A stretch of DNA of 64,000 bases from Vulcanimicrobiota bacterium (GCA_050250895.1 JBFWNU010000001.1:3251557-3315556); one strand, 5' to 3'; positions 1-18,450 are shown, counted from the stretch's first letter. Notes: generated by a model from the sequence alone, not told the origin. Numbers and translations: made by a program.

Positions 1-1288
1 CCTCTCGGCGCCTTTGCGGCTCGGCGGTTTTGCACAAAGCCCAGGCCCGGCTGGCGGCGGCGAGTTCGACTTGCCCCGGAGGGACTCGACGCTTCGCGTC
101 GTAACTCTTGCGCGGCTGCGCCGCTCGTCAGAGGGGAGGGCTCGCTGCGCTCGCCAGAGAGGAGCGCTGGCTGCGCCAGCGAGGAAGGAGCGGCCTCCGG
201 CTAACGCCTCGGCCGGGAGAGGAGCGAAGCTCGCTGGGCTCGCTTCGAGTTTTGAGGGACTCGACGCTTCGCGTCGTAACTCTCGCGCGGCTGCGCCGCT
301 CGGCGTAGCACGCTGCCGAATGGCCCAGGCTATAAGCCGCAAAGGCGCAGAGGTGTGGCCGGCTGCCTGGTGGTGTCTCCGCGGGTCGATGGCCGTGGCT
401 CGTCCAATTGGGTTCAGGTCCGGCCAGATGAGCGGATTTTTCGAAGAGGCGCCTACGTCTCAGTCTATTTGCCCAACCCAAAACTATATGAGCCTCCGCC
501 AACCTTCCAGGTACCCTACCTCCGCGCCCACCGCGTATCTCCGCGGTTTCTCAAGTTCGAGGGCGCACCCATCAAGATCCAGGTCCCTCTCGGCGCCTTT
601 GCGGCTCGGCGGTTTTGCACAAAGCCCAGGCCCGGCTGGCGGCGGCGAGTTCGACTTGCCCCGGAGGGACTCGACGCTTCGCGTCGTAACTCTTGCGCGG
701 CTGCGCCGCTCGGCGTAGCACGCTGCCGAATGGCCCAGGCTATAAGCCGCAAAGGCGCAGAGGTTTGGCCGGCTGCCTGGTGGTGTCTCCGCGGGTCGAT
801 GGCCGTGGCTCGTCCAATTGGGTTCAGGTCCGGCCAGATGAGCGGATTTTTCGAAGAGGCGCCTACGTCTCAGTCTTATTTGCCCAACCCAAAACCCAGG
901 TACCCTACCCTCCGCGCCCACCGCGTATCTCCGCGGTTTTCTCAAGTTCGAGGGCGCACCCATCCAGATGCATGTCCCTCTCGGCGCCTTTGCGGCTCGG
1001 CGGTTTTACACAAAGCCCAGGCCCGGCTGGCGGCGGCGAGTTCGACTTGCCCCGGAGGGACTCGACGCTTCGCGTCGTAACCCTGCGCCGCTCGCCCCGG
1101 CTGATTCGGCAGCTGAGGCGCCTACGTCTCAGTCTCAGTTGCCCAACCCAAAACCCAGGTACCCTACCCTCCGCGCCCACCGCGTATCTCCGCGGTTTTC
1201 TCAAGTTCGAGGGTGCACCCATCAAGATCCAGGTCCCTCTCGGCGCCTTTGCGGCTCGGCGGTTTTACACAAAGCCCAGGCCCGGCTG
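1..1288. repeat. Non-coding mosaic tandem repeat of palindromic (REP/BIME-like) blocks; probably continues left of the window
   Basis: Block CCTCTCGGCGCCTTTGCGGCTCGGCGGTTTT recurs at 1, 586, 977 and 1236. Hairpin block GAGGGACTCGACGCTTCGCGTCGTAAC occurs four times. An inverted copy AGCCGCAAAGGCGCAGAGG lies at 335-353. Indels between copies break every reading frame. Confidence 0.85.
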
Positions 1289-1329
1289 ATTTGGCAGCAC
1301 ACTGCCAAAGGGCCAGCTCGCCGCGACGT

Positions 1330-3096
1330 TTAGATGGTCTGCGAGCGAAACATCAGGGCGTAGAGGCCATCGGCGGCTAGAAGCTGTTCGTGGTTGCCCT
1401 GTTCGACTACCCGGCCTTCGTGGAGCACGATGATTTTGTCGACGTTTTTCACGGTGGCCAGGCGGTGGGCGATGATGAGGGCGGTGCGGCCTTCCAGCAG
1501 CAGCTCGAGGGCTTCGTTGATGGCCGCTTCGGTCTTGCTGTCGATGCTGGCGGTGGCTTCGTCGAGGATGAGGATGCCGGGGTCGCGCGCCAGGGCCCGG
1601 GCGAACGACAGGAGCTGGCGCTCGCCCTGGGAGAGGTCGTTGCCGCCCTCGCCGATTTCGTGGTCGAGGCCTTTTTCGAAGCGGTTGACCACCTGGTCGG
1701 CCCGGCTCACGCGCAGGGCTTGTTCGAGACGCTGCTCGGAGAGGTCGGTGAACAGGGTCAGGTTGCGACGCACGTCGCCCGAGAAGAGGAAGAGGTCCTG
1801 GTGGACAAAGCCGATGCGGCTGCGCAGGTCGGCCACGTTCCAGTCCTCGAGCGATTGGCCGTCGACCTCGATGCGGCCACCATCGGGAGCGAGGGGATAG
1901 AAGCCGAGCAAGAGGCCGGTGATGGTGGATTTGCCCGAGCCGGTGGGGCCGACCAGCGCCACCTTCTGGCCGGGTTCGACCTCGAAGCTGACCTCGTGTA
2001 GAACCGGTTTCTCCGGGTCATAGGCAAAGCTGACCTGGTCGAAGCGCAGCGAGCCGGTGGGGTCCGGTCTTGCGCTGGGGCGGTCGAGGCCGGGTTCGGG
2101 CGGGCTGTCGAGGATGCGAAAGAGGCGCTCGGAGGCGATCACTGCCTTCTGGAAGACGTTGAACTTCTCGGCCATTTCCTGCAGGGGCGAAAACAGCATG
2201 CGCAGGTAGAACAGAAAGGCCACCAGGCCTCCCATGGTCAGGTCTCCTTCGAGAATCTGGCGGCCGCCGATGATGAGCACCAGGGCGCTGGCCAGGATTT
2301 CCGAGATGGCGAAGGCCGGACGGAACATGGCCTGACGGTGGATGATGTTCATCTCGTTGGTGTAGCACTCATGATTGAGCAGGGCGAAGCGCTCGCGCAT
2401 GACTTTCTGGGCCGACAACGACTTGATGATGGTGATGCCCTGGACGGTTTCTTGGAAGAAGGCGTTGACTCTAGCCAGCAAGACCCGCAGTTCGCGATAG
2501 AGTTCTTGCGAGACGCGCTTGAACCAGAACGTCAGAGCCACCAGAAAGGGGCAGAGCAGAAAGAGTATGGCGGTCAGACCGGGCTCGAGATAGAGCATCG
2601 CCAGGAGGATGCCGAAAAAGAGGAAGAAGTCGGCCAGCCCCGAGGCCAGCACGTTGGTGAAGAGTTCGGCCAGGGCATTGGTGTCGTTGGCGACCCGGGT
2701 GACCAGCCGGCCCACGGCGTTCTGGTCGAAGAACTTGATGGGCAGGCGGTGGAACTTGGCCCAGATGCGGGTTCGCATGCTGCGGACGACTCCCTGGCCC
2801 ACCCGGTTGAGACCCAGGGCGGTGGAGTATTCGATCACTAGTCCGGCCAGCAGCAATCCGATGTAGACGAGGGCCAGGTGCTGGAGGCCCTCGAGCCGGC
2901 CGGCGGTGGCTCCGGCGGCAACCATGAATCCGTCGATGCCGGCTCGGACCACCTGGGGCAGGGCCACTCGCACCATCGACGAGGCCAGCGAGCCGGCCAG
3001 GCAGGCAAACAGCAAGCCACGGCCAGTCAAGCTCTCGCTGAGCAGACGCCGCAGGTTGGCCCAGGCGGCTGGGCGTTCCAGGCGTTCTTCATCCAT
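1330..3096 (-). CDS. ABC exporter, fused permease/ATPase (MdlB-like)
   Basis: N-terminal TM domain, Walker A GPTGSGKS, signature LSQGERQ, Walker B ILILDEATASID. Confidence 0.93.
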   Translation of the reverse strand: MDEERLERPAAWANLRRLLSESLTGRGLLFACLAGSLASSMVRVALPQVVRAGIDGFMVAAGATAGRLEGLQHLALVYIGLLLAGLVIEYSTALGLNRVGQGVVRSMRTRIWAKFHRLPIKFFDQNAVGRLVTRVANDTNALAELFTNVLASGLADFFLFFGILLAMLYLEPGLTAILFLLCPFLVALTFWFKRVSQELYRELRVLLARVNAFFQETVQGITIIKSLSAQKVMRERFALLNHECYTNEMNIIHRQAMFRPAFAISEILASALVLIIGGRQILEGDLTMGGLVAFLFYLRMLFSPLQEMAEKFNVFQKAVIASERLFRILDSPPEPGLDRPSARPDPTGSLRFDQVSFAYDPEKPVLHEVSFEVEPGQKVALVGPTGSGKSTITGLLLGFYPLAPDGGRIEVDGQSLEDWNVADLRSRIGFVHQDLFLFSGDVRRNLTLFTDLSEQRLEQALRVSRADQVVNRFEKGLDHEIGEGGNDLSQGERQLLSFARALARDPGILILDEATASIDSKTEAAINEALELLLEGRTALIIAHRLATVKNVDKIIVLHEGRVVEQGNHEQLLAADGLYALMFRSQTI

Positions 3097-4822
3097 GCCC
3101 GACGCCCTCCAGATTCTGTAGGCGATAGAGGTCTCGATAGAGACCCGGACGGCTGATGAGCTGGCGGTGGGGTCCGTGGTCGACTACGCGGCCGTGGGCC
3201 AGTACCAACACCGTCTCGAGTTCGCTCACCGCCGAGAGGCGATGGCTGACGATCAGGCGGGTGCGCGGGGCCCCCTGGCGCCAGCTTTCCAGGATACGAT
3301 GCTCGGTTTGGTGGTCGACCGCCGAGAGAGTGTCGTCGAGCAACACGATGGGACACTCCTTGAGGAGGGCTCGGGCCAGGCACAGGCGCTGGCGTTGGCC
3401 GCCCGAGAGCGAGATGCCGCGCTCGCCCAGCAGGGTTTGGTAGCCCTTGGGAAAGGCCAGTACTTCAGCCTCGAGAGCGGCCCTGCGACACACCTCTTCG
3501 AGCTCTTCGAAGGGCACCTCGGCGGCGGCCAGGCGAAGGTTGGCCTCGATCGTGTCCGAGAAAAGGAAGGCCTCTTGCGAGACCCAGGAAAACTGGGCGC
3601 GCAACTGGGCTAGGTTCATGGTGGTGATGTCGACCCCGTCCAGGAAGATGGTCCCGGGCGGCGGCTCGAAGAAGCGATTGAGCAACAGCAGCAGGGTCGT
3701 TTTGCCGCTGCCGACTTCGCCCACGATACCCAGGCTGTGACCGGCCGGCAGGGTGAACGACACGTCGCGCAGGGCCGGTTGGTCGGCTTTGGGATAGGTG
3801 AAGGTCAGGTTGCGCACCTCGAGTTGGCCGGCAAAGTCATGCTCGATGACCGGCAGAGGGATCTCCTCGGGAAGGTCCAGTAGATTCTGCACGCGGTTCA
3901 TCGACACCGCCCCGCGCTGAATCAAGACGAACATCCAGCCGGCCGCGATCATGGGCCAGGTGAGCTGGGCCAGATAGGTGGTGAAGGCGGCGAAGGTTCC
4001 CACCGTGGTCAGTCCGTTGACCACCCGGGCACCGCCAATGAGCAACAACAGGGCCGTGGAGCTGCCGGCGAAAATCATGATCAGCGGGCGGAAAGTGGCG
4101 TCGGTGCGGACATAGGCCATGTTGAGGGTGAAATATTCCTGGTTGAGACGCTCGAAGTCGCGGTTGTCGCCGTCGGCGGCTCCGGCCGCCCGCAGCACCC
4201 GCATGCCCTGGATGCTCTCGCGGACTTTCTCGGTGAGGCGCTCGAAACTGGCCTGGACTCCGTCATACAGATGATAGATGCGGCGCAGGGCAAAGCCCAT
4301 CACCAGCCCCAAAATGGGGAGCGGCAAGATGGCCCAGAGCGTCAGCCGCCAGTCGAGCCACAGCATGGCCGAGATGGTCATGGCGCTGAAGAACAACGAG
4401 TCGAAGAGAGCCAGCAGTCCGAAGGCCAGCGCTTGTTTGATTGAATCGACATCGTTGGTGGCCAGGGCCAGAAACTCGCCGATACGGGTCTCCTGGTGTT
4501 GGCGGGTCGACAGGGCCAGAGCCTTTTCTAGGATGGCGTTGCGGATCTCGACCTCGGCCAGCCGCGAGGCGCTCATCAAGAAGTGACGCCACCACACCTT
4601 GGCCACGAAGCTGGCCGCGGCCAGACCCACCAGAATCATGCCGGACCGGGTCAGTCCGGGGGTGGTGGCCTCCCCCAGACTGAGGGCGTCCACGGCCTCC
4701 TTGACCACCAGCGGCACGAACAGCTGGGCTACGTCGGCGCCGATGACTCCCAACAAGCCGAGAAAGACCAGCCACCGCCGCTGCCACAGGTGGCGACCCA
4801 GGCCTTTGAGTCCCTCACTCAT
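3089..4822 (-). CDS. ABC exporter, fused permease/ATPase (MdlA-like, degenerate site)
   Basis: GEVGSGKT, LSGGQRQR, LLDDTLSAVD. Start set at MSEGLKG (ATGA overlap with the upstream gene) rather than the ORF-track start. Confidence 0.92.
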   Translation of the reverse strand: MSEGLKGLGRHLWQRRWLVFLGLLGVIGADVAQLFVPLVVKEAVDALSLGEATTPGLTRSGMILVGLAAASFVAKVWWRHFLMSASRLAEVEIRNAILEKALALSTRQHQETRIGEFLALATNDVDSIKQALAFGLLALFDSLFFSAMTISAMLWLDWRLTLWAILPLPILGLVMGFALRRIYHLYDGVQASFERLTEKVRESIQGMRVLRAAGAADGDNRDFERLNQEYFTLNMAYVRTDATFRPLIMIFAGSSTALLLLIGGARVVNGLTTVGTFAAFTTYLAQLTWPMIAAGWMFVLIQRGAVSMNRVQNLLDLPEEIPLPVIEHDFAGQLEVRNLTFTYPKADQPALRDVSFTLPAGHSLGIVGEVGSGKTTLLLLLNRFFEPPPGTIFLDGVDITTMNLAQLRAQFSWVSQEAFLFSDTIEANLRLAAAEVPFEELEEVCRRAALEAEVLAFPKGYQTLLGERGISLSGGQRQRLCLARALLKECPIVLLDDTLSAVDHQTEHRILESWRQGAPRTRLIVSHRLSAVSELETVLVLAHGRVVDHGPHRQLISRPGLYRDLYRLQNLEGVGHG

Positions 4823-7800
4823 CGTGGCTTCACCGAGCCAGCCAGAGAGCAGGTGAGAGACTCGAGCCAATCCAGCTCCTGCTCGTTGGTGAATTGCTCG
4901 AGTTCGGCGTTGACCAGACCGACCAGGTAAGTGCACAACATCAAGACGGCGTTGGGGTCCTGTTCGTGATGTTCGAGCAGCCACCGCAGATTCGAGTTGA
5001 GCCGATTGAGCTTGAGTTGGGGAACCACCTTGCCCCGGTCGGTGAGGCTGCCGAAGTAGGCCGGGGGCCCCAGGGGCCAGCTGGCCCAGACGGCGCCCAG
5101 GACCAGGTCAGACGACTCGCGGCGGGCCCAGCCGGTTACACTCAATTTGAACTCGCGGCGCAGCCGAACCAGCAGAGCTCTTTCACGATCGGAGCGGGGC
5201 GACTGCTCGGAGGTGTTGAGTCGCTCGAGCGCCGCGCTCACCGTCGACCAGCCCCAGGCGCAGGCGTCGACGAGTCTTTGCACACCTGCGGGACGAGGAG
5301 GCTCATCTAGCCGGCGCAGGTTCTGGCTACCCACCAGGCCGACCATGATCTCCCACTCCAAACTCGCTTCGGGCAAGACCGGCACCAGCCCCTGGTCGGG
5401 CTCGTTGGCGGCGAATGGCGAGTAGACCAGCTCCTTGTTGAGATTGGCTTCGTCCATCAAAGCCAGGGCCGAGGCTCGCCGCCCGCCGGTGAGAAAAAAG
5501 AGCGGCAGCTCGGCCAGTTGGCGGCCCAGAATGCCCGCTTTGGATTTGCCTCCCACTTCGCGTCGTAATTCGAGTAGGGCCCCAAGAAGCAACTGCCGGA
5601 CGGGGCGCGAACGTTGGCCCTGGGCGTAGTCCTGGGCCAGACGAGCATAAATACCCCGGCCGGCCTCTTCTAGTTCCTCCTGGAGGGCGTTAGGCAGTTC
5701 GACCTGATTCGAATCCGGCAGGCGGTTGAACTCGCCTACCACAAAGGCCACCGTCTCGAGAAAAGGTCGGGGCCCGTGCCCCACTGTTTGTCCCTGGGCG
5801 TCTTGCGCCACCAGATAATACTCCTGGGCTCGGCTGGGAATCCCGATCACGCTCCCGCCCGGCAGCTCTCGTTTGATCAGCCAGCCGGAGGGACGCGAGG
5901 GAAGAGAACTCAACTCTGCTTGTAAGCGACGTTCCTGGCGGAGGCGTTCCACCTGACCGACCAGGGCACACTCGGCCAGTCTTGCGATGGCCTCCCAAAG
6001 GCTGGCGGGGGCCACCAGCATCGGCTCGCGAGGCCAGCGCGCCTGAGCGGGCGTCACCACGGGCACCGACTTGCCAAAGAGCTCGCGCAGCTGAGCCAGG
6101 CTGACCAGGCGATCGTCAGAGAGCGTCAACAAAGGAACCTCACGCAAACTCTGCCGGTCCTCGCTGCGCAAGCTCACCTCTGAGGCCACCAGCAGCAGAG
6201 CCTTGAGGGCGGCCGCCCTGGGGACGGAGCGGGCCAGCTCGGCCAGGCACTTTGAAACGGCCTCCATCAGGGCTGGGCGCAGTTTGGCCAGGTTGTTAGC
6301 GGCCGTGTAGTTGTAATTGGGCTGGAGTTTGCCGTGCGAGAACCAGACGCAGCAAGGGGACGGAAAAACCTTCTTCTGCTCTTCGAGCAAGCGGTTCTGA
6401 TACACGATTTTGAGCCAGCCAGTGGCCCGGGAGGTGAGGGCCAGGCGGCCCTGAAAGGGCGCCGGCAGCGAGACCTGGGCCAAGGAGCCCAGAAAAGGGA
6501 TGGTCCACAACTCGGGCGACCTGGACAGAAAATCCTGGCGGGCGGTCAGTTGCGAGACCACCGGGCCGGCCGCTTGCGAGGCAAAGCCCTCGAGAAGGCT
6601 GCTCAGCAGGCTCTCGAGCTTGCGCGACAGCCGCAAGACGGGACGCTCGGGGTGGGTGACCCTGGTGCCCGTTAGTAGATCACCATGCTTCTCGAGCTCG
6701 GTCTGGACCTCGGCCAGAGTAAGCCAGGTGTCGTCGGACGTCTCGACCAACGGGGTGTGCCAGAACAACTCCTTGAGCTGGGGTTGCCGGCTGAGCAGCT
6801 TGAAGATCAGCTTGCGGCGCTCGTGGTCGGGCTTTTTGAGCCGGGACAGCTCTTTCCAGGCTCGCTCTTCGGCTTGGGCTACCACGGCGAGCGCGCGCTC
6901 CATCGTCTGGTCGTCTTCCAGGTCGCTCCAGTCCTGGTTGGGTTTGAAATCGGCGCTCTCGATGACGGCCGCCAGGGGGACCCCGCTCGGCTTGTAGTGG
7001 CGGCTGCCTAGCGCGATCCCCCGGTGGACCAGGCGCAGGTTAGGAGAGAGCTGCCTGGGTAACAGCCCCAACTTGCCCCGAAAACCGTCGGCCTCGACGG
7101 TGACCTCGACCAACCCCGGGTCAGGCAAGTCGAGGTCGGGCTCACCGTCGAGCTGGTCGGCCACCGCGCCCAAATGCTCAAGGCGTTTGCGCTGATCGCT
7201 CAGGTGCTTTCCCAAAAGCAACTGCAACAAGCGGCGCTCGCGCTCGTCCACCAGGGCGACGATTTCGGCCGGCAGGAAATCGGGGGGAAGCGACCGGGTA
7301 TAGTGCTCCAGCAGGACCCATCCACAGCCCCGGGCTTGTAAGTCTTCGAGGCTGCAGGGGCCCTGCAGGCTGGAGAAGATCCGCAGGCGCAAAAAGTGGG
7401 CCGGCAACTTGGAAAGACTGGCCTGATCAGCCATCGCTGTGAGCAGGTGATGGCGCACCGCCGGAAGGTCGGCGTCGAGGCTGGCCTCATCAAGCTCGGT
7501 ATAGAGGTCGCGGGCGGCCCGAGTGAGCTTGTCCAGGGCCTGCTCGAAGCGCTTGTCCTTGGGTCCGCTCCAGTCCGGCTTGAGGTCTAGCCTGGGAAAG
7601 TCGAGCACGGCCGTATAAGACAGATCGTCGTTGGCTTTGTGGGTGCACAGCAGCTTGCTCTGATAGAGGACGTGGACCAGCGAGTCCGAGCCGGCGTCGA
7701 GCGACAGACCGACCTCGCCCCGGCAGGTCTTGAGGTCCACGGGTTTGCGTGCCAGCCAGGCCCCCGGAGGTAAGACGGCCTCACGCGGGCTGTTCTGCCA

Positions 7801-8916
7801 CTGGGTCTGGTTGGCCCGAATGGCAAGTTCTTCGGCTACTCGCGAGGCGGCGTCCTGCAAGCTGCTGCCAAAGTGGGCTTGCAGGGCGGCCAGGACGAAC
7901 GGTTGGCGGGCCAGCAGCACGGTGACCCCCTCGAGGATGACATCCACCCGCCGTTGCGAGAAAAAGAGACTGCCGGACTGGGAGCGCAGCTGGCGCAAAT
8001 CGGCTTTGCTCAGGTACGTGCCCGAGGCCGTCGGAAACAGGGGTATCTCTTCTAGAGCGCGTACTTGCGCCAGTGCCAACAGGAGAAATTTCCAGAGCTC
8101 CGGCTCGGCCGCCAGGTCCGCCTGGCGAGCCAGCGCGAGTAGTTGTTCTTCGGCCGATTGGGCGGCCTTTTCGACCAGCCCCTGGTAGGTGGCGTTCTCG
8201 ACCACGTCGGTGTGCGAGGCGTTGAGCTTGAGCTGGTCACAGACGGCCACGGCCCGATACGGGATGGAGGTCTCTAGGTGGCGTATTCCACAGGTCACTC
8301 CCAGCACCACCAGTTCGAGCCGGGAGCGGTCCGATTGGAGGGCCAGTTCCAGGCCCAGAGAATCGGTCTGCACAGAAGCGCTCAGCCGGCGACCGTTCCA
8401 ACTCAGTTCCAACCGGCAGTGCGAACAGTGCTCTTCCAGCAACTGACGAAGACTGGTCTGGTCGAGGCGCCCGTCAATCTGCAGACGAGCGGACCCGGGC
8501 TCGGTTTTCTCGAGCTTGTCGGGTCCCGCGCCGCGGTGCAGTCGATAGCCGCCGACCTCGAGGGTGATCTGCTGGGGATCGAGTTGTCCCAGGCTGTTGA
8601 GGGCTACGCCCAGGTGGGCCAGGGCGCGTTCCTCTGGCTGGTCGGTCGAGCTGAGCATGAAGTCGTCGAGATTGGCCAGAGCCTCGCCCGGGAGAGCCAG
8701 GTCGGGAAGCTCGAAGGTCAGTTGGCGACTCTCGGCGGTGATGGCGATGCGCGAGGCCCCGCCGGCGACGGCGGCCATCACCACCTCGAGGCCAAAACGC
8801 AGCGGCTCGGTCAGCTGGAATCTGGCCATCTTGGAGCGGGCTTTCTCGACGTCGAGGGTAAACTGGCCCAGCGAGTCGACCGTGCCGCCCTGGCGAAGTC
8901 GTTCGAGCAGGCTCAT
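4819..8916 (-). CDS. 1365-aa protein: degenerate GHKL/Hsp90-like N-domain plus ~5 tandem Hsp90-middle-domain-like repeats
   Basis: Start MSLLERLRQGG at 8916 (ATGA overlap). N-box decayed to FGLEVVMAAV. Recurring P-L-F-x4-G/D-x3-S/T-L-x-E/D-L-like motif about every 630 nt. Confidence 0.75.
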   Translation of the reverse strand: MSLLERLRQGGTVDSLGQFTLDVEKARSKMARFQLTEPLRFGLEVVMAAVAGGASRIAITAESRQLTFELPDLALPGEALANLDDFMLSSTDQPEERALAHLGVALNSLGQLDPQQITLEVGGYRLHRGAGPDKLEKTEPGSARLQIDGRLDQTSLRQLLEEHCSHCRLELSWNGRRLSASVQTDSLGLELALQSDRSRLELVVLGVTCGIRHLETSIPYRAVAVCDQLKLNASHTDVVENATYQGLVEKAAQSAEEQLLALARQADLAAEPELWKFLLLALAQVRALEEIPLFPTASGTYLSKADLRQLRSQSGSLFFSQRRVDVILEGVTVLLARQPFVLAALQAHFGSSLQDAASRVAEELAIRANQTQWQNSPREAVLPPGAWLARKPVDLKTCRGEVGLSLDAGSDSLVHVLYQSKLLCTHKANDDLSYTAVLDFPRLDLKPDWSGPKDKRFEQALDKLTRAARDLYTELDEASLDADLPAVRHHLLTAMADQASLSKLPAHFLRLRIFSSLQGPCSLEDLQARGCGWVLLEHYTRSLPPDFLPAEIVALVDERERRLLQLLLGKHLSDQRKRLEHLGAVADQLDGEPDLDLPDPGLVEVTVEADGFRGKLGLLPRQLSPNLRLVHRGIALGSRHYKPSGVPLAAVIESADFKPNQDWSDLEDDQTMERALAVVAQAEERAWKELSRLKKPDHERRKLIFKLLSRQPQLKELFWHTPLVETSDDTWLTLAEVQTELEKHGDLLTGTRVTHPERPVLRLSRKLESLLSSLLEGFASQAAGPVVSQLTARQDFLSRSPELWTIPFLGSLAQVSLPAPFQGRLALTSRATGWLKIVYQNRLLEEQKKVFPSPCCVWFSHGKLQPNYNYTAANNLAKLRPALMEAVSKCLAELARSVPRAAALKALLLVASEVSLRSEDRQSLREVPLLTLSDDRLVSLAQLRELFGKSVPVVTPAQARWPREPMLVAPASLWEAIARLAECALVGQVERLRQERRLQAELSSLPSRPSGWLIKRELPGGSVIGIPSRAQEYYLVAQDAQGQTVGHGPRPFLETVAFVVGEFNRLPDSNQVELPNALQEELEEAGRGIYARLAQDYAQGQRSRPVRQLLLGALLELRREVGGKSKAGILGRQLAELPLFFLTGGRRASALALMDEANLNKELVYSPFAANEPDQGLVPVLPEASLEWEIMVGLVGSQNLRRLDEPPRPAGVQRLVDACAWGWSTVSAALERLNTSEQSPRSDRERALLVRLRREFKLSVTGWARRESSDLVLGAVWASWPLGPPAYFGSLTDRGKVVPQLKLNRLNSNLRWLLEHHEQDPNAVLMLCTYLVGLVNAELEQFTNEQELDWLESLTCSLAGSVKPR

Positions 8917-10445
8917 TTCTTGCCTTTCCCTGCGCTCAGCGCCGGGGGGGGGTTGGCCAGGTGGCGCCGCAGGCTGAGCATGTCCTCCAGGCCGGCCCGG
9001 TCGGTTCGTCCGTGGGCCAGCCCCAGCATGCGCGAGAGCAGATAGACCGCCATGGGGCGGTCGTGGCTGGCGATGGTCAGCAGTTGTTGAAAAGTCTTGT
9101 GCTGGACCTGCACCCCCAGGGTCCCGCCCCCCGCATCGACCCGGCACGGCTGCCCCAGCGAGCGACAGGCAACCGAAAGGGAGTCTTTTATCCGCTGCGG
9201 ACCATACTCCACCCGGCAAGCTTCGATGGACCTGAATCCGTGGGCGGCAAGGTTCGGCAACACCCAGGCCAGCATCCGGCGGACCTCTTCTTCGGCCGGC
9301 TGGGCCACGGCCAGAAAGACCGCCTGTTCGACCGCCCGCGGCTGGTAACCCAGGCTTTCGAGACAGGCCAGCAGCGGGCTGTTGCGGCCAGCTTTGAGCA
9401 CGGGTTGCTCGTCCTCGAGCAAAGCGCGCACCAGCGCGCCGGGCTGCTCGCAATAGAGCACCTGCTGGTCCAACTCGGTGGCCGAATAGCGCCGCTCGAA
9501 TCCGGGGAAGATGGCCGGCCACTGCTGGCGGGGGCGCTCGAGGGGAAGGGCAGCAGCAAGAGCCAGCGCCTTCCAGAGGGGATGGTCGGCGTCGACTTCG
9601 GTCAGGCGTTCGAGCAGGTCGTCGGCCATGCCCTCGTAGGCCGCCTGCTTTACGATGGAGAGGGCCAACCTGTAGTGGTCATCGTGAAGCACGTTATCGC
9701 GAGTGAGAGTGTGTTCGAGATAACGCGAGCGCACCTTGAAGGCCAGGTGGGCCAGGGGGGAGCCCTGACCTTCGAGCAGGGTCAAGCCCCGATTGTAGTA
9801 GCCGTGAAAAGGAGCGCTCCCGGCCACCGGCGCGACCACCACCTCGGTGCCCTGTTGGCTGTGCTTGAATTCATAGGGCTGCCCCAGGCTAAAGGGCTCG
9901 TTGATCGGCTCGCCGGCGAAGCGCACTTCCACATCACAATGCTTGCACCAATAAATGACGGTATCCCGGCAATCTTTTTTGAGACGGTTGAAACCCCGCC
10001 CTTCAAGCGATACCCAAACGGCTACCCGGGTCCCGTCCACAGGGTGGTCCAGCCGAATTCGTTCGAACGACCTGTCAGGCCGAAACAGGATCCGCCAGGC
10101 CTCTCCCGAGCGTCCCGTCTCGACCGTGACCGCCTGGGGATTGATGGCAAAGACCGACACGAAACCGATGCCGAACTTTCCGATCTTGGTGAGGTCGTTC
10201 TCTTTGCTTGAGGAGAAAAGGCAAGTCAGCCGAGAGTCGATGATCTCCCGGTCCATTCCTTCGCCCGTATCGATGACCTCGATCACGGCGCACCCTTCGG
10301 CCTTGTCCCGGCGTACCTCGACATCCACTCGGTTGGTGGAAGCATCGAGGGCGTTCTGAATGAGTTCTCGCAAAAACGCCAGCGGCTGCGAGAACTGCGC
10401 GATGAGAGTCTCGAGTGCGTCGCTAGCGCCGACAGCGCGAGCCAA
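8913..10445 (-). CDS. Hsp90/HtpG-like GHKL ATPase
   Basis: Intact FLRELIQNALDA, DTGEGMD and IGKFGIGFVSVF motifs; middle-domain catalytic-loop-like LEHTLTRDNV. Confidence 0.88.
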   Translation of the reverse strand: MARAVGASDALETLIAQFSQPLAFLRELIQNALDASTNRVDVEVRRDKAEGCAVIEVIDTGEGMDREIIDSRLTCLFSSSKENDLTKIGKFGIGFVSVFAINPQAVTVETGRSGEAWRILFRPDRSFERIRLDHPVDGTRVAVWVSLEGRGFNRLKKDCRDTVIYWCKHCDVEVRFAGEPINEPFSLGQPYEFKHSQQGTEVVVAPVAGSAPFHGYYNRGLTLLEGQGSPLAHLAFKVRSRYLEHTLTRDNVLHDDHYRLALSIVKQAAYEGMADDLLERLTEVDADHPLWKALALAAALPLERPRQQWPAIFPGFERRYSATELDQQVLYCEQPGALVRALLEDEQPVLKAGRNSPLLACLESLGYQPRAVEQAVFLAVAQPAEEEVRRMLAWVLPNLAAHGFRSIEACRVEYGPQRIKDSLSVACRSLGQPCRVDAGGGTLGVQVQHKTFQQLLTIASHDRPMAVYLLSRMLGLAHGRTDRAGLEDMLSLRRHLANPPPALSAGKGKK

Positions 10446-10468
10446 GGAAACTACCGTACCATCTGGGT

Positions 10469-10894
10469 TTAGGCCGTTTGTAGGACTTTGAGTTCTTCCA
10501 TTACGTCACCGGGGCGGATGGCGTCGACCACTTCCATCCCCGAGATCACGCGGCCAAAGACGGTGTGTTTGCCATCGAGATGGGGCTGGGGCGAGTGGCA
10601 TACGAAGAACTGGCTGCCGCCCGTGTCCTTGCCAGCGTGGGCCATCGACAGCGAGCCACGCAGGTGCTTGTTGGAATTGATCTCGCACTTGATCTGGTAA
10701 CCGGGACCGCCGGTGCCGTCGCCCCGCGGGCAACCACCCTGGATGACGAAGTCGTCGATCACGCGGTGGAAGGTCAGGCCGTTGTAGAAGCCTTTGTTGA
10801 TGAGCGACGTGAAGTTGTCGACGGTGCCGGGAGCGTCTTTGTCGAAGAGTTCGACTACCATCGTGCCTTTGTTGGTCTTGATTTCTGCTTGCAT
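10469..10894 (-). CDS. Cyclophilin-type peptidyl-prolyl isomerase
   Basis: [47 protein letters not shown] at 10894 follows GGAGG. Confidence 0.96.
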
Positions 10895-10957
10895 GTCTAC
10901 CTCCGAGGCCCGACTTGTTATACGGCTTGGTGTAGGCTTCCTTCCCGAAGGTCCGAC

Positions 10958-10988
10958 AAAAGCAAAAGGCCCTCCCGAAGGAGGGCCT
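10958..10988 (-). terminator. Rho-independent terminator
   Basis: AGGCCCTCC-loop-GGAGGGCCT hairpin followed by a T-rich tail on the minus strand, just downstream of the 11007-12164 gene. Confidence 0.8.
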
Positions 10989-11006
10989 CGAGTTGGCTTT
11001 CCTCGT

Positions 11007-12164
11007 TTAGCGAGCGACCAGTCCGACCGACGAGGCGGGCAGGCCGGCCGCGCCGGGCAGGGGAGTGAGGGTGCCGTTGGCAGCCAGGCCGAAGGCCGAG
11101 ATGGTCTGGTCGCCGCCGTTGAGGGTGTAGACGAACAGATTGTCATCCGAGACAGCCAGGTCGACCGGGTTGAGACCGGTGACGCCACTGTTGCCGCCGG
11201 CCAGCAAGGTCAGACCGCCGTTGGCCGCGATTTGGTAAACGCTGACGGTGCTGCTGCCAGTGTTGGTCACGAAGGCAAAGGGTACGCCGGGGGCGATAGC
11301 CACCCAGCAAGCGCCGGTCTGGTTGTTGGCCAGGGCGGCGGTGACGGGGGTCAGGGTGCCGTTGACTCCGACCAGATAGCTGGAAACGGTGCTGGCGTTG
11401 GCCACGCCGCCCTGGGCCTCGGACACGACCAGCACGCCGGTGCTGGTGAAGCTAAAGCCAAACGGAGTGGCGCCCTGCGAGGCTTGAGCGGTGCCGGCCT
11501 GAGCCACGCCGCCCACTACCGGGAAGGTCACGATCTGGTTGGTGGCGCGCTCGGTCACCACCAGCACGGTGCCGGACGGGTGAAATCCGATCTGAGCCGG
11601 GTTCGGGTTCACGGCCGAAAGCAGTTGCGTCGAGTTGGGAATGGGTACGAGCTGGTTGCCCGAAACCACGAAACCGGAGATGTTGGCCGCGTTGGCGCCA
11701 CCGTCGCCGAAGTTGAGCACGTACACCAGGTCGCCCGACACGGTCACGCTGATGGGACGGACGCCACCCGAATTGACGGTGGACACGGGGGTCAGGGTGC
11801 CGTCGATGCCGAGCAGCATCATGGTCACGCTGTTGGAGACGGCGTTGACTGCAAAGAGTCGGTTGGTGTTGGCCTGGAAGACCACCGCTCCGCTCGAGCC
11901 ATTGAGGCCGCCGCCGGTGCCGGAACCACCGGTGGCAAAGTTGTTGAGAAAGGTCAGTGCGCCGGTGGTGGAACGGGTGAAAGCGCGGACCCGGTTGGTC
12001 GCTTCGTTGGTGAGGGTGTAGACGGCCTTAGGAGCAATGGGAGTATTGCCCGTGCCGGTGTTGGTAGTGGTGCCGGTATTATTGTCGTCGGAAGTATCGC
12101 AACCGGCAGCCAGGCAGATAGCCAGGGCTAACAGGGCGAATTGAATGATTCTGGGGATACGCAT
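11007..12164 (-). CDS. Lipoprotein, lactonase-family (6-phosphogluconolactonase-like) beta-propeller
   Basis: Lipobox LAAGC, Thr/Asn linker, repeated G-x-LT blade motifs. Confidence 0.85.
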
Positions 12165-12242
12165 TTCATCTCCTAGTAGAGTTTTTCCCGTTGGCGGGAC
12201 GTTCTTAGAGGGAGATGGGTTTCCTGCCTGAGAATCGGCGCA

Positions 12243-12701
12243 TCAGCCGTGAAGACTGGATTCAAGCTCCATTACCCAGCCCTCGGCCGGGTCTTTGCGC
12301 CAGTAGAGGATGATCTCGGGCTCTTTGACCTCTTTGGTATTGAGGATTTTCACCACCGCGTGCACCTTGACTCGGGCACGGTTGCCGCTACGGTCGATAT
12401 CGACATCGCGGATATCGTAACGCTGGATGTCGAGAAACTCGGGCTTGATGGCGAAAAGTCGCTCGATGAGCCTGGCGATGTTGACGTCCTTGCGATCCTC
12501 GGCCGAGTGATAGCTGGCGGCTTTCTCGAAATCCTTGAACTGCAAGTCCTCCATGAAATCCACGCTTTGCTGAGAGAGAAACTTGGCGTCGCCTGAGCCT
12601 AATGACACACCACCCGAGCCGCTCCCTGGGCGACCGCCAATGACCAGCAAACCGATGGCCAGCAACAGCAACACCGCAAAGACGGCCGCAATCTTCTTCA
12701 C
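12243..12701 (-). CDS. Membrane-anchored hypothetical protein (possible NTF2-like fold)
   Basis: GTG start overlapping the upstream stop (GTGA); N-terminal hydrophobic helix; ends with a W-x6-W strand pair. Confidence 0.65.
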   Translation of the reverse strand: MKKIAAVFAVLLLLAIGLLVIGGRPGSGSGGVSLGSGDAKFLSQQSVDFMEDLQFKDFEKAASYHSAEDRKDVNIARLIERLFAIKPEFLDIQRYDIRDVDIDRSGNRARVKVHAVVKILNTKEVKEPEIILYWRKDPAEGWVMELESSLHG

Positions 12702-15852: not shown

Positions 15853-18450
15853 TCAGAAGCTCACCGTGAAGTTCGAATTGATCATGATGCCATCATAACT
15901 CAAGGGGTGGATCGAGCGTTGGGGGACGAACAGAGTATTGGTGCCCGGAATGGTTGGGGTTGAAAAGACGGCCGACGGCACACGGTCTTGAGTCGAGATG
16001 AACAAAGCGTCGACGTTCCAGGCCACCGTCGGGTCGATTTGGTAAGAGAAGCCCAGCGAAGGCTGCTTCTGGGTGACGTCGAGGTTCTTGAAGCGCGTCT
16101 CGCCGGTACTCTCGGCGAAGGCCGAGTAGGCTCCGAACGGGTCGTAGTGGCCCGAGATGGTGTAGTTGCCGTAGCCGGCATTGAGGGTGAAATCCTCGGT
16201 CAGGTCGTAACCCAGTTCGAGTTCCCAGCCGGTATAGTCGAGATCGACAAAGTTGACGTTCTCGCCGCGGGTTCCCAGGGGGCCCGGACGCAGTGCCTGC
16301 AGATTGCTGCCGCGATGGAAGTTGGTGGTGTTGAAACGGGCTTGAGCCTTGAAGCCACGAGTGGTGTCTTCGCCGAAATACCACTTGTAGCCGGCCGCCA
16401 GGGCGTAGAAGTCGCTATCGCCTTTGGGAGCCTCGAGCGGCACGGCCAGAGTGTTGCCGCCACTGGCCACGAACGTATTGGGCGAGAAGCCTCCGAAGAC
16501 CGGGTCGACAAACCCGGGGCTAAAGCCCAGCACCGGGGTGTTGGGAATGGCCGCCCCCAGGCTTGCGGTCGAGAAACGAATATCCTGGAGCGAAGCTTGT
16601 TTCTGGTCGAGAAGGCCAAATTTGGCGTCGACCACTCCGCTCTCGGCGAACTCCCAGCGCAGGTGGCCCCGCCAACCCTGACGGTTGTGGGGCAGCAAGT
16701 CGGTGTCGTGGAGGGGGTAAAGGTCGGGACGCGTGCTCAGGAAGTTTTCGCCCAGCCGGAAGCCGTTATAAAGGATGCCCCCGATGCGAGGGATCTGGAG
16801 CACGAAGGGGTCGTAGGTGGGATCGACCGAGAGATAGTCGAGATCGAGGTCAAGCCCCTCGACCGGCGTCACTCCTGCGCTGACCCGGAAGGCGTCGCCG
16901 TCGGCGGTGTAGCTGGAATTCTTCTGCGGTCGATATTCGCTGTGGGCATACTCGGCCACCACTCGGGGGGCCAGGTCGTTGTCCCACTCGTAGCGGGCCG
17001 ACAGACCGTAGCTGACCTGGTCCTGGGGGCCGATATTGCCGAAGTTGAGGTCACCAAGCACGCCCGTGATTCCGTCGTTGTTGACGGCGGACATGGGAAC
17101 GGGGCGAACGTCGCCGGTGCTGCCGATGCCGCCGGTGGCCATGGTGCCCAACTGGTTGTAGTAGAAGCCGGGCGGATTGACCCAGGGGATAGGACCCAGG
17201 TTGGTGCCGGTAATCAGGCCCACCTGGCGGGCCGCCCCGCCCGAGGCGTCGTTGGCGGCATGCAGAAAGTTGAACCGCACCCGGCCGCGTTCTTTCGAGA
17301 AGACATAGGCGAGATTGACGCCTTCAGCGTGATTGAAATACGAGGCCCCGCCGACGCCACCGTTGCGGTCGGGCAAAAGCGTGCCCATGACTTCCCATTC
17401 TAGTTTCTGGTCGAAGTCGTCGTCGAGTTCGATTTGTCCATACACCTGAATACCGTAGCCGTCGAGATACTTCTCGCCAAAGTTGCCGGGGTTGTACTGC
17501 TTTTGGTAGACGCTGGGGTCAAAGTGAGGCTGCTCGATGGAGCCGAGGCGCAGCATCGTTTTGCTGGGTTTGTGCTCGAGCCAGAAGTGGTCGAGGGTCA
17601 TGGTGGTAAAGGGTCGATGGTTGGTGGGCTGGACGCCGGCCAGTCCCCCGGTGACCGTGCTCAAGGCCGTGAAAGCGTTGGACAGAAACGGCGGTGAGAT
17701 GCCGTAATACTGCCCCACCGACTGGTCGCCCTGGGAAGAGAAGGCGATGAATTCGGCTCCGGCATCGAGATCGGGCGTCAAGCGGATATTCAGACCCAGG
17801 GTAGCCAGGCTGGTGAAGGCCGTGCCGTTACTGAGGGGGCGACCGGTCTTGAGATTGTTGACCGTGAAAGCGCCGAAGGCGAAGGGGTCGAAGTTGAGGG
17901 TGGCGGCCGGACCGGTGGGGATTCGGCCGCCAGCACCAGGCACGCTACCGATGATCGAGTTGTAGTCGAGCAGGGCATCGCTCGGATCGCTAAAGCTCGA
18001 GCCCGAGTTCCGATAGGTCTGGAAACTGGTGCGCACCTCGAGGTTGCCGTAAAAGGTGATGCGTTCCAGTTCAGTCACCCGCCGATCGATGCGTTCGGTC
18101 TGTTCTTCGAGGTTGGTGACGCGAACGCCGAGGGCATCCAGTTCTTCGCGCAGGGCTTCAGCCAATTTACGCAACTCTTCCAGTTCGGCTTTGGTAGCGA
18201 AGGTGGCGTGGGCTTGTTCCATCTTGGCCAGCAGGCGCGCCACGCTCATGGCCACTTCCCAGCGCGACGCTGCCCGGTCACCCTTGAAGGTCCCGTCAGG
18301 ATAGCCCTCTACCAGGCCTTTGGCGGCCAGGGCCGAGACGGCGTCGCGAGCCCAGTGGGCATCGGGCACATCAGGAAAGAGCGGAGCTGCCAGGCTGACC
18401 TGCCCCAGTAAAAAAACGAGAGCCAGTGCGGCTCCGAGTGTGCGACGAAT
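15853..18450 (-). CDS. SLH-domain outer-membrane beta-barrel protein (OmpM-like); probable ATT start
   Basis: FPDVPDAHWARDAV...GYPDGTFKGDRAASRWE SLH domain, coiled coil, beta-rich body, C-terminal Phe. The signal peptide lies upstream of the ORF-track GTG at 18369. Confidence 0.85.
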   Translation of the reverse strand: MRRTLGAALALVFLLGQVSLAAPLFPDVPDAHWARDAVSALAAKGLVEGYPDGTFKGDRAASRWEVAMSVARLLAKMEQAHATFATKAELEELRKLAEALREELDALGVRVTNLEEQTERIDRRVTELERITFYGNLEVRTSFQTYRNSGSSFSDPSDALLDYNSIIGSVPGAGGRIPTGPAATLNFDPFAFGAFTVNNLKTGRPLSNGTAFTSLATLGLNIRLTPDLDAGAEFIAFSSQGDQSVGQYYGISPPFLSNAFTALSTVTGGLAGVQPTNHRPFTTMTLDHFWLEHKPSKTMLRLGSIEQPHFDPSVYQKQYNPGNFGEKYLDGYGIQVYGQIELDDDFDQKLEWEVMGTLLPDRNGGVGGASYFNHAEGVNLAYVFSKERGRVRFNFLHAANDASGGAARQVGLITGTNLGPIPWVNPPGFYYNQLGTMATGGIGSTGDVRPVPMSAVNNDGITGVLGDLNFGNIGPQDQVSYGLSARYEWDNDLAPRVVAEYAHSEYRPQKNSSYTADGDAFRVSAGVTPVEGLDLDLDYLSVDPTYDPFVLQIPRIGGILYNGFRLGENFLSTRPDLYPLHDTDLLPHNRQGWRGHLRWEFAESGVVDAKFGLLDQKQASLQDIRFSTASLGAAIPNTPVLGFSPGFVDPVFGGFSPNTFVASGGNTLAVPLEAPKGDSDFYALAAGYKWYFGEDTTRGFKAQARFNTTNFHRGSNLQALRPGPLGTRGENVNFVDLDYTGWELELGYDLTEDFTLNAGYGNYTISGHYDPFGAYSAFAESTGETRFKNLDVTQKQPSLGFSYQIDPTVAWNVDALFISTQDRVPSAVFSTPTIPGTNTLFVPQRSIHPLSYDGIMINSNFTVSF

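Follow-up and report, generated by a model that had tools for sequence, protein, structure and literature searches.

We analysed a 64,000-nucleotide (nt) stretch of the genome of a Vulcanimicrobiota bacterium (GCA_050250895.1 JBFWNU010000001.1:3251557-3315556), here called the window, and focused on two adjoining genes on its minus strand, gene A and gene B. A first-pass annotation, made by a model from the sequence, had read them as an active Hsp90-like ATPase coupled to a pseudo-Hsp90 with five tandem middle-domain repeats. The first ATG of gene B (8916) overlaps the TGA of gene A as ATGA, as that annotation had noted. The two genes and their parts are listed below with window positions and residues of the encoded proteins in amino acids (aa); HMM stands for hidden Markov model, i-E for independent E-value, and percentages given with hhalign are its probabilities.

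8913..10445 (-): gene A, compact Hsp90-like ATPase, 510 aa, TTG start
9876-10445 (-): gene A N (GHKL) domain, residues ~1-190
9321-9875 (-): gene A middle domain with catalytic-loop Arg249, residues ~191-375
8916-9320 (-): gene A C-terminal domain, residues ~376-510
4819..8916 (-): gene B, pseudo-Hsp90 with five middle-domain-like units, 1365 aa
8365..8916 (-): gene B pseudo-GHKL (Hsp90 N-like) domain without nucleotide-binding residues, residues 1-184
7717..8364 (-): gene B unit 1, Hsp90 middle-domain-like, with LKLNASHTD, in which His235 takes the position of the catalytic Arg, residues 185-400
7081..7716 (-): gene B unit 2, hhalign to units 1, 3 and 4 at E 5e-15 to 2e-14, residues 401-612
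6457..7080 (-): gene B unit 3, found by hhalign and unit HMM, 88.5% with the A-family profile, residues 613-820
5827..6456 (-): gene B unit 4, found by hhalign and unit HMM, residues 821-1030
5197..5826 (-): gene B unit 5, divergent, hhalign 80-94% to units 1-4, HMM i-E 2.5e-7, residues 1031-1240
4819..5196 (-): gene B C-terminal region, Hsp90-C-domain-like, predicted contact with A, residues 1241-1365 plus stop

Gene A carries the motifs of a working GHKL ATPase. RELIQNALDAS begins at residue 26, DTGEGM at 59 and GKFGIGFVS at 89, and these align residue for residue with HtpG FLRELISNASDA, SDNGIGM and GQFGVGF, the signature of the GHKL/Bergerat fold. TLTRDN begins at residue 246, and its R249 aligns with the Arg of the HtpG LNVSRE loop, that is, with the catalytic-loop Arg. 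E27, N31, D34, D59, G61, G63, G89, G92, G94, R249 and D250 were invariant in 75 members of the A family, and the earlier claim that gene A holds all GHKL motifs together with TLTRDN was borne out. In Pfam, HATPase_c_3 matched at 2.4e-12, and HSP90 (PF00183) gave no match at E ≤0.1. The NCBIfam model P_loop_sacsin (sacsin N-terminal ATP-binding-like domain) was passed with 54.8 bits against a cut-off of 50, but the HtpG models NF003555 (37.4 bits against 371) and PRK14083 (37 bits against 455) both failed. Since the curated Hsp90 models are failed, gene A belongs to a separate, shortened Hsp90-like family and is not an HtpG orthologue; a canonical HtpG (646 aa), ~130 residues longer than gene A, is encoded elsewhere in the same genome.

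The likeness of gene A to Hsp90 extends over all three domains. The A-family profile matched E. coli HtpG (2iop_A, 5.6e-13) twice, once over the N-domain and once with A264-505 on HtpG 343-604. Compared by hhalign with a canonical HtpG profile built from 27 HtpG sequences of the same phylum, gene A scored 99.6% (E 5e-24, 441 columns), and its C-terminal part scored 87.7% against HtpG 456-605 (E 3.4e-6), where the two share an LN..H motif. The AlphaFold2 (AF2) model of gene A had a mean predicted local distance difference test (pLDDT) score of 92.2, and its best Foldseek match was TRAP1 (4ipe_A, 2.1e-21). Superposition with VIA gave Z 20.1 against TRAP1 7kcl_B over model residues 1-497 and Z 20.1 against the Hsp90 N-M fragment 4z1i_A, with a root-mean-square deviation (rmsd) of 4.2 Å over 275 residues. 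The family comprises 506 cluster representatives at E ≤1e-30 among 1.84 billion proteins. These results indicate that gene A encodes a shortened yet complete Hsp90 homologue, one that belongs to its own family.

The N-terminal domain of gene B is related to that of gene A and has lost the nucleotide-binding residues. Residues 34-283 of B matched A17-299 by blastp (E 1.8e-5), and the B N-domain profile matched the A family by hhalign (95.4%, E 1.8e-8). In this alignment Glu44 of B alone is kept (A Glu27); Asn31 of A is replaced by Ala48 and Asp34 by Ala51, and nothing like DxGxG or GxxGxG was found in the B N-domain. The decayed N-box and the missing DxGxG and glycine loop had already been described at first pass, correctly. 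Compared directly with HtpG, the B N-domain profile gave no match (E 0.066), so its tie to Hsp90 runs via the A family and via a structural model. The AF2 model of B1-612 (pLDDT 83.8, predicted template modelling score 0.58) had TRAP1 4j0b_A as its best Foldseek match (2.8e-12), and every match listed was an Hsp90; B16-361 superposed by VIA on residues 100-568 of the TRAP1 N-M fragment 4ivg with Z 17.7 and rmsd 4.5 Å over 337 residues. As modelled, gene B is a protein with the Hsp90 N- and middle-domain folds and without the ATP-binding residues. To judge from its residues, the N-domain keeps the fold and would be unable to bind ATP in the canonical way.

Behind this single N-type domain gene B repeats one unit five times. 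The five repeat motifs begin at residues 291, 511, 721, 927 and 1137, with spacings of 220, 210, 206 and 210 residues, and four loops lie at residues 229, 445, 657 and 864. The ~210-aa repeats reported at first pass are therefore real; their motifs stand, and their DNA positions were off by ~20-25 nt (true starts 8046, 7386, 6756, 6138 and 5508), which is immaterial. Self-BLAST of gene B gave no off-diagonal match at E ≤10 and profile comparisons were positive, so the repeat is visible to profiles only. With unit profiles built from a 16-sequence orthologue alignment, the pairwise hhalign comparisons of units 1-4 reached 98.3-99.1% (E 2e-14 to 1e-18) over 189-197 columns and in register, and unit 5 matched units 1-4 at 80-94% (E 1.4e-5 to 1.5e-7). 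An HMM trained on units 1-4 only recovered unit 5 at residues 1054-1204 (i-E 2.5e-7). Pairs of units are 15-21% identical. Among the controls, all 11 comparisons with the N or C flank gave E of at least 0.09, and 20 of 20 comparisons with reversed units gave E of at least 0.044. The B N-domain profile found no match among the units (E at least 0.24), in keeping with one N-type domain only.

The repeated unit resembles the Hsp90 middle domain, as the first-pass annotation had proposed. Region 213-377 of the A-family profile matched unit 1 at 92.8%, unit 3 at 88.5% and unit 2 at 77.3% by hhalign, and matched units 4 and 5 weakly. Against the canonical HtpG profile single units were weak (unit 1 24%, unit 3 31.5%, units 2, 4 and 5 <1%), and only the pooled unit profile reached 72.7% with HtpG 311-500 (E 3.2e-5, 162 columns). 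The alignment places B LKLNASHTD on HtpG LSLNVSREI, with His235 at the place of the Arg, and B PLFPTAS-GTYLSKADL on HtpG LFRSTHGEGWTTLADY (LFRSTH..TLADY). The catalytic-loop Arg is likewise missing from the loops of units 2-4 (LKPDWSG, FKPNQDWSD and LQPNYNYT), just as had been claimed for the first four units. In the AF2 model the strands and helices of unit 2 follow one another as they do in unit 1; the fold is thus covered by the model for unit 1, and for unit 2 by secondary-structure order, and units 3-5 are assigned by homology to units 1 and 2. A search of the ESM Atlas with B613-1030 returned, among named clusters, an unrelated antitoxin family at rank 1 (0.92) and HSP90-domain fragments at ranks 2 and 3 (0.88 and 0.87), which serve as leads only.

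In a tree of 66 units, grouping followed position and not protein. Units 1 to 4 of Myxococcota each formed one clade with 100% support, and the Xenobia-like unit 1 grouped with Myxococcota unit 1 (96/75) and unit 3 with unit 3 (95/91). This grouping argues that the array is old and that each position has been kept.

We then considered how A and B may be joined. The similar C-terminal helices seen at first pass in both proteins are real but weakly alike in sequence, and the A stretch that matches B (A441-477 on B1299-1335) falls at the LN..H motif that A shares with the HtpG C-terminal domain. A191-510 was modelled with B1031-1365 in 3 runs alongside 3 controls. The interface score ipSAE was 0.69 in all 3 runs, and the best of the 3 controls reached 0.01; the mark applied to this score is reached by 116 of 157 solved complexes and by 2 of 215 mismatched pairs. 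The runs shared at least 90% of their contacts, and the pLDDT of the partner did not fall below 71. A451-497 and B residues 1284-1362 make up the interface, an Hsp90-type C-terminal helix bundle. In silico, these results support a putative junction of A and B through their C-terminal helices.

Database searches with gene B gave little, and its relatives were found by searching genomes. There was no Pfam, NCBIfam or PADLOC family match, a protein homologue search returned only 4 proteins including B itself, and the ESM Atlas clusters nearest to B1-400 were unnamed 'hypothetical protein' sets from Myxococcota and Vulcanimicrobiota. A full-text literature search found no pair of an Hsp90-like ATPase with a pseudo-Hsp90 and no tandem middle-domain protein, with the proviso that 2023 work in Nucleic Acids Research on Hsp90-like defence proteins could cover related families. 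Gene B represents a large, unannotated protein family, and the pair is without a description in the literature searched. Orthologues were gathered by genome search: 33 of 401 genomes of the phylum match gene B, 13 of them over nearly the whole protein, and 18 of the 19 B loci fetched in the phylum have an adjacent A. The cross-phylum survey took the best 80 loci of 379 relatives of A in public genomes, and the pair was scored for A genes with at least 700 nt of downstream sequence (n=75). A gene with the B pseudo-N domain lay directly downstream, or was fused, in 62 of the 75, and A-B loci were assigned to Vulcanimicrobiota, Xenobia, Myxococcota, Elusimicrobia and Nitrospirales. In one locus (L101:3534-9056) an A-type and a B-type protein share one 1841-aa frame, an apparent in-frame fusion; in another (L103) the A-B pair occurs twice in tandem, and in L059 a single A is flanked by five B-like genes. 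The 52 complete downstream genes contained 0 to 7 detected units, with divergent units probably undercounted by the unit HMM. Complete B orthologues and multi-unit relatives retain the B-type C-terminus.

The same genome holds a second A-B pair (C6:132974-137673), in which a 521-aa A paralogue overlaps by 4 nt a 1045-aa B-like gene with ~2 detected units and the B-type C-terminus. A third A paralogue (C1:1999915-2002308) is an open reading frame (ORF) of 797 aa with ~260 extra N-terminal residues without a Pfam match, and it has no B.

The loss of the ATP-binding motifs and of the catalytic Arg could also mean that B is a decaying Hsp90 duplicate without a function of its own, its repeats being relics. 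A copy in a genome of the same genus (L018, identical to L028:1478-5947) is indeed broken in both genes: the A sequence is spread over two frames and lacks part of the profile, and the B N-domain is in a different frame from what remains of B (709 aa, two partial units), with two ABC genes still downstream. Either the pair is dispensable there, or the contig or assembly is faulty. Decay is nonetheless hard to reconcile with a frame that stays open for 1365 codons, with 12 orthologues from other genomes that are 24-34% identical and keep the length (1377-1430 aa) and the five-unit order (four strong units plus the fifth region), with a partner conserved across phyla, and with the confident AF2 model. 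We consider this explanation highly improbable.

The pseudo-N domain is itself greatly expanded in this genome. With residues 1-190 of B, phmmer matches 63 six-frame ORFs and a profile HMM matches 80. Their lengths are mostly 350-700 aa, and a few carry 3-7 middle-domain units; examples lie at C3:574142-575905, C1:2048641-2049750, C2:494556-498935 and C6:153856-158925. None of these pseudo-N paralogues had a PADLOC match. Among 90 ORFs with any match, the C-terminus HMM found only B and 4 others. Tetratricopeptide repeats (TPR) end 8 of the 19 paralogues examined, one of them weakly (L109, L110, L117, L118, L119, L121, L122 and L126). TPR is a classic co-chaperone module of Hsp70 and Hsp90, so the TPR-tailed paralogues may be adaptors. 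A family of ~80 members also widens the range of possible functions. Genes for HNH endonucleases, one also with DUF222, adjoin 5 of the 80 paralogue loci (for example C1:3340058-3341329, C4:160207-161460 and C6:489205-490452) and may be mobile or selfish elements. Two-component proteins (21 of 80) and Ser/Thr kinases (9 of 80) recur as neighbours of the paralogues; we rejected them as evidence because such genes are common and the counts may be due to chance.

Building on the homology, the repeat architecture, the motif loss and the conserved gene pairing, we tentatively favour, at slightly short of an even chance, a two-subunit Hsp90-derived machine in which A is the motor, B, as a nucleotide-blind protomer, offers a platform of five middle domains, and the two are joined at their C-termini. 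Gene A would supply the only site that binds and hydrolyses ATP. Gene B would act as a pseudo-protomer whose middle domain has been multiplied to five position-conserved units, none with the catalytic Arg, and its C-terminal helices would pair with those of A as two protomers do in an Hsp90 dimer. Both would come from a single transcript in which the stop codon of A overlaps the start codon of B, an arrangement that favours equimolar assembly. ATP-driven closure of A could then be passed through the shared C-terminal bundle to the elongated array, with pairing of the A N-domain and the B pseudo-N domain as a possible extra relay. The middle domain is the main client-binding surface of Hsp90, and the array would therefore hold or remodel large or multiple clients; we infer chaperone or remodelling activity and client binding by the units on this ground. 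The motor-plus-scaffold anatomy suggested at first pass is supported, as far as sequence and models reach, by the repeats, the fold, the co-occurrence and the pair model. Unsupported repeats, another fold or failure of the genes to co-occur, which that annotation had named as grounds for giving up its reading, were not what we found.

Several observations weigh against this two-subunit machine. An HMMER profile of 28 units found no Hsp90 among PDB sequences (best match a P450, E 0.013), and because HMMER alone finds none, the tie of the units to Hsp90 draws on profile-profile comparison and one AF2 model. A profile of unit 5 plus the C-terminus likewise found no Hsp90 in the PDB (best match a designed protein, E 0.043), and the sequence similarity of A441-477 to B1299-1335 is weak (37 columns, E ~1e-4, probability 49-59%). 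The pairing also has gaps: 13 of the 75 scored A genes are without a B-like gene in the scored position. A B-like gene does lie just beyond the distance limit in L053 and elsewhere in the locus in L056 and L076. The broken same-genus copy counts here too. The B arm is ~four domains longer than the A arm, so simultaneous N-N and C-C pairing would need the array to be looped out. General Hsp90 duty is already covered, since the genome has a canonical HtpG. Away from the pair, 61 of the 63 pseudo-N-domain ORFs found by phmmer have no A gene within 3 kb, which implies that the pseudo-N domain does not need an adjacent A. Finally, the pass of the complex model may stem from its likeness to solved Hsp90 homodimers.

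Some of these points lead to a different arrangement, without a stable heterodimer, in which A would be a homodimeric mini-Hsp90 and B a separate homodimer or monomer serving as an ATP-independent holdase, co-chaperone or scaffold, the two linked by co-expression only. Hsp90s are homodimers, and the modelled interface, being an Hsp90-type bundle, would also allow A-A and B-B contacts; with A-B pairing alone modelled, the pass is compatible with a heterodimer and with two homodimers alike. Most pseudo-N proteins, moreover, lack not only an A neighbour but also a B-type C-terminus. Translational coupling of A and B through ATGA, the strict order of A then B together with the apparent fusion, the score of the heterotypic model against its controls, and the retention of the B-type C-terminus in complete orthologues and multi-unit relatives all speak against it. 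We regard such separate assemblies as doubtful.

The two-subunit machine could also be part of something larger. An obligate asymmetric Hsp90, its five middle domains specialised by position and together serving as a platform for very large or multiple clients, may be accompanied by the ~80 pseudo-N proteins, many of them TPR-tailed, as interchangeable adaptors that dock on a few A-type motors by N-domain pairing. This extension is speculative and we consider it decidedly unlikely.

The genes around the pair on the minus strand bear on its possible roles. They are, from upstream to downstream:

10966..10989 (-): terminator-like hairpin, 10-bp stem with 7 GC pairs and a T-rich tail
10469..10894 (-): small, cytoplasmic-type cyclophilin peptidyl-prolyl isomerase, Pfam Pro_isomerase 2.4e-45
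3089..4822 (-): ATP-binding cassette (ABC) exporter half-transporter 1, 577 aa, Pfam ABC_membrane 9.9e-34 and ABC_tran 7.2e-28
1330..3096 (-): ABC exporter half-transporter 2, 588 aa, 8-nt overlap with the end of ABC gene 1

The cyclophilin has 141 aa counted from Met99 of its ORF; this Met lies at 10894 and is preceded by GGAGG, and 23 nt separate the cyclophilin stop from the start of gene A. The ATG of ABC exporter 1 overlaps the TGA of gene B, again as ATGA; its nearest NCBIfam model is SmdA (416.6 bits, under the cut-off of 845). The hairpin sits between the cyclophilin gene and an upstream beta-propeller gene and is the strongest of 9 terminator-like sites in 900-12600, a number at chance level (shuffle mean 8.2); it is likely the 5' limit of the operon. 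The overlaps of A with B, of B with the first ABC gene and of the two ABC genes, the 23-nt gap and the hairpin ahead of the cyclophilin make it likely that cyclophilin, A, B, ABC and ABC form one transcription unit. A cyclophilin gene directly upstream of A was also found in 4 other loci (L028, L031, L044 and L047), and ABC exporters downstream of B recur in only four (L028, L044, L083 and L085). The cyclophilin fits a protein-folding theme, and A and B may be linked in function with it or with the exporters. Translational coupling to two ABC exporters, with a cyclophilin upstream, thus widens the range of possible functions for A and B. Upstream of the operon, 11007-12164 (-) encodes a lactonase-type seven-bladed beta-propeller (Pfam 1.2e-17), and farther away 15853-18369 (-) encodes a large protein with an N-terminal iron-uptake porin match (NCBIfam 2.1e-14, below cut-off).

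Other phyla have a different set of upstream genes, which is absent from the window. In 9 loci a coiled-coil protein is encoded upstream of A, in 18 an unknown protein of ~350 aa and in 8 an AAA+ ATPase (Pfam AAA 2.3e-5), for example at L050:3161-6975 and alike in L053, L060, L064, L071, L072, L081, L082, L088 and L103 (Elusimicrobia, Bradymonadales and Myxococcales). By profile comparison none of these conserved upstream genes resembled A, B or HtpG (E at least 0.075), and none had a PADLOC match. In L053, L064 and L089 the stop-to-stop frame of A extends 530-590 residues upstream, which could reflect fusion.

Such neighbours, in 8-18 of the 80 loci, fit another explanation, that A and B form a conflict (anti-phage or anti-plasmid) or signalling module, with the B array and the paralogues as sensors or scaffolds, A as a switch driven by ATP and the output located elsewhere, such as in the coupled ABC exporter or in an unlinked effector. 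The patchy spread of the pair, mostly in large-genome, socially complex bacteria, the expansion of the pseudo-N domain, the TPR tails and the variable number of units agree with this, as does the resemblance of the A N-domain to the ATPase of Tiamat (TmtA; best PADLOC match 5.1e-11). According to a 2026 preprint, a defence role has been proposed for prokaryotic Hsp90-like proteins that are fused to HD or calcineurin-like effectors (10.64898/2026.09.30.754977). Neither A nor B, however, contains a nuclease, HD, phosphoesterase or other effector domain (Pfam E ≤0.1), B itself and the upstream neighbours match nothing in PADLOC, and the match to TmtA takes in only ~85 residues, against profile lengths of 1063-1782 positions. 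Around the pair the window holds metabolic genes besides the cyclophilin and the ABC exporters and shows no defence island, and the units are kept by position across phyla and are not diversifying quickly. We judge a conflict or signalling role unlikely. If it holds, an Hsp90-derived scaffold would be added to that repertoire.

In bacteria, Hsp90 is seen as a homodimer that for the most part acts without partner proteins of its own. The favoured pairing of an active mini-Hsp90 with a pseudo-Hsp90 would test how much ATPase asymmetry an Hsp90 cycle tolerates and what role the Hsp90 middle domain plays by itself. A large unannotated family, with ~80 paralogues in this genome and relatives in Myxococcota, Elusimicrobia and Nitrospirales, would gain a function as well. 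If the adaptor extension is true, few motors serving many pseudo-protomer adaptors would be a kind of chaperone network unknown in bacteria.

Among known systems, the pair is close to Hsp90 itself (bacterial HtpG, mitochondrial TRAP1). Gene A shares with it the order of the three domains, the GHKL motifs, the catalytic-loop Arg and the C-domain motif LN..H; Hsp90s are the best structural matches of the AF2 models of both proteins, and B keeps the N- and middle-domain folds and ends in helices that resemble the Hsp90 C-terminal domain. The differences are that A is shorter than HtpG and fails the curated Pfam and NCBIfam Hsp90 models, that B is without the ATP-binding residues and the Arg and carries five middle domains where Hsp90 has one, and that the pair is encoded as two different subunits, unlike the homodimers of known Hsp90s.

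Sacsin, a eukaryotic protein with three repeating regions, was cited at first pass as a precedent, and the parallel is loose. Hsp90-related modules are repeated in one large protein in both cases, and the A N-domain passes the NCBIfam sacsin N-terminal domain model; Pfam SACS reaches 32.6 on A, just under its cut-off of 32.8, and covers residues 76-101 only. Each sacsin repeat, however, bears its own ATPase domain (10.64898/2026.09.30.754977). Repetition of whole ATPase-bearing units, which the precedent would imply, is not what gene B has: it repeats the middle domain only, with a single dead N-domain.

With Tiamat (TmtA) and other GHL ATPases linked to defence, MORC and paraMORC, the shared part is the GHKL N-domain. 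TmtA is described as a single protein of >1000 aa in which a GHKL ATPase is followed by DUF3684 and a DUF3883-type nuclease (10.64898/2026.09.30.754977). Gene A differs in that the PADLOC TmtA models match only A15-155, mostly 19-103, and neither A nor B showed DUF3684, DUF3883 or a nuclease at Pfam E ≤0.1. MORC2 is among the structural matches of A (Z 17.1-17.2, residues 1-279), but Hsp90s score higher and also cover the A C-terminal domain.

A further parallel is with asymmetric Hsp90 dimers, such as engineered dimers with one hydrolysis-dead protomer and the asymmetric closed state of TRAP1. Common to both is the idea that one active and one inactive protomer can give a working Hsp90 cycle, and 5tth ('Heterodimeric ... 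TRAP1 in ATP/ADP-hybrid state') is among the structural matches. Those dimers are products of one gene or of laboratory mutation, whereas here the asymmetry would be written into two genes, with the dead protomer greatly extended.

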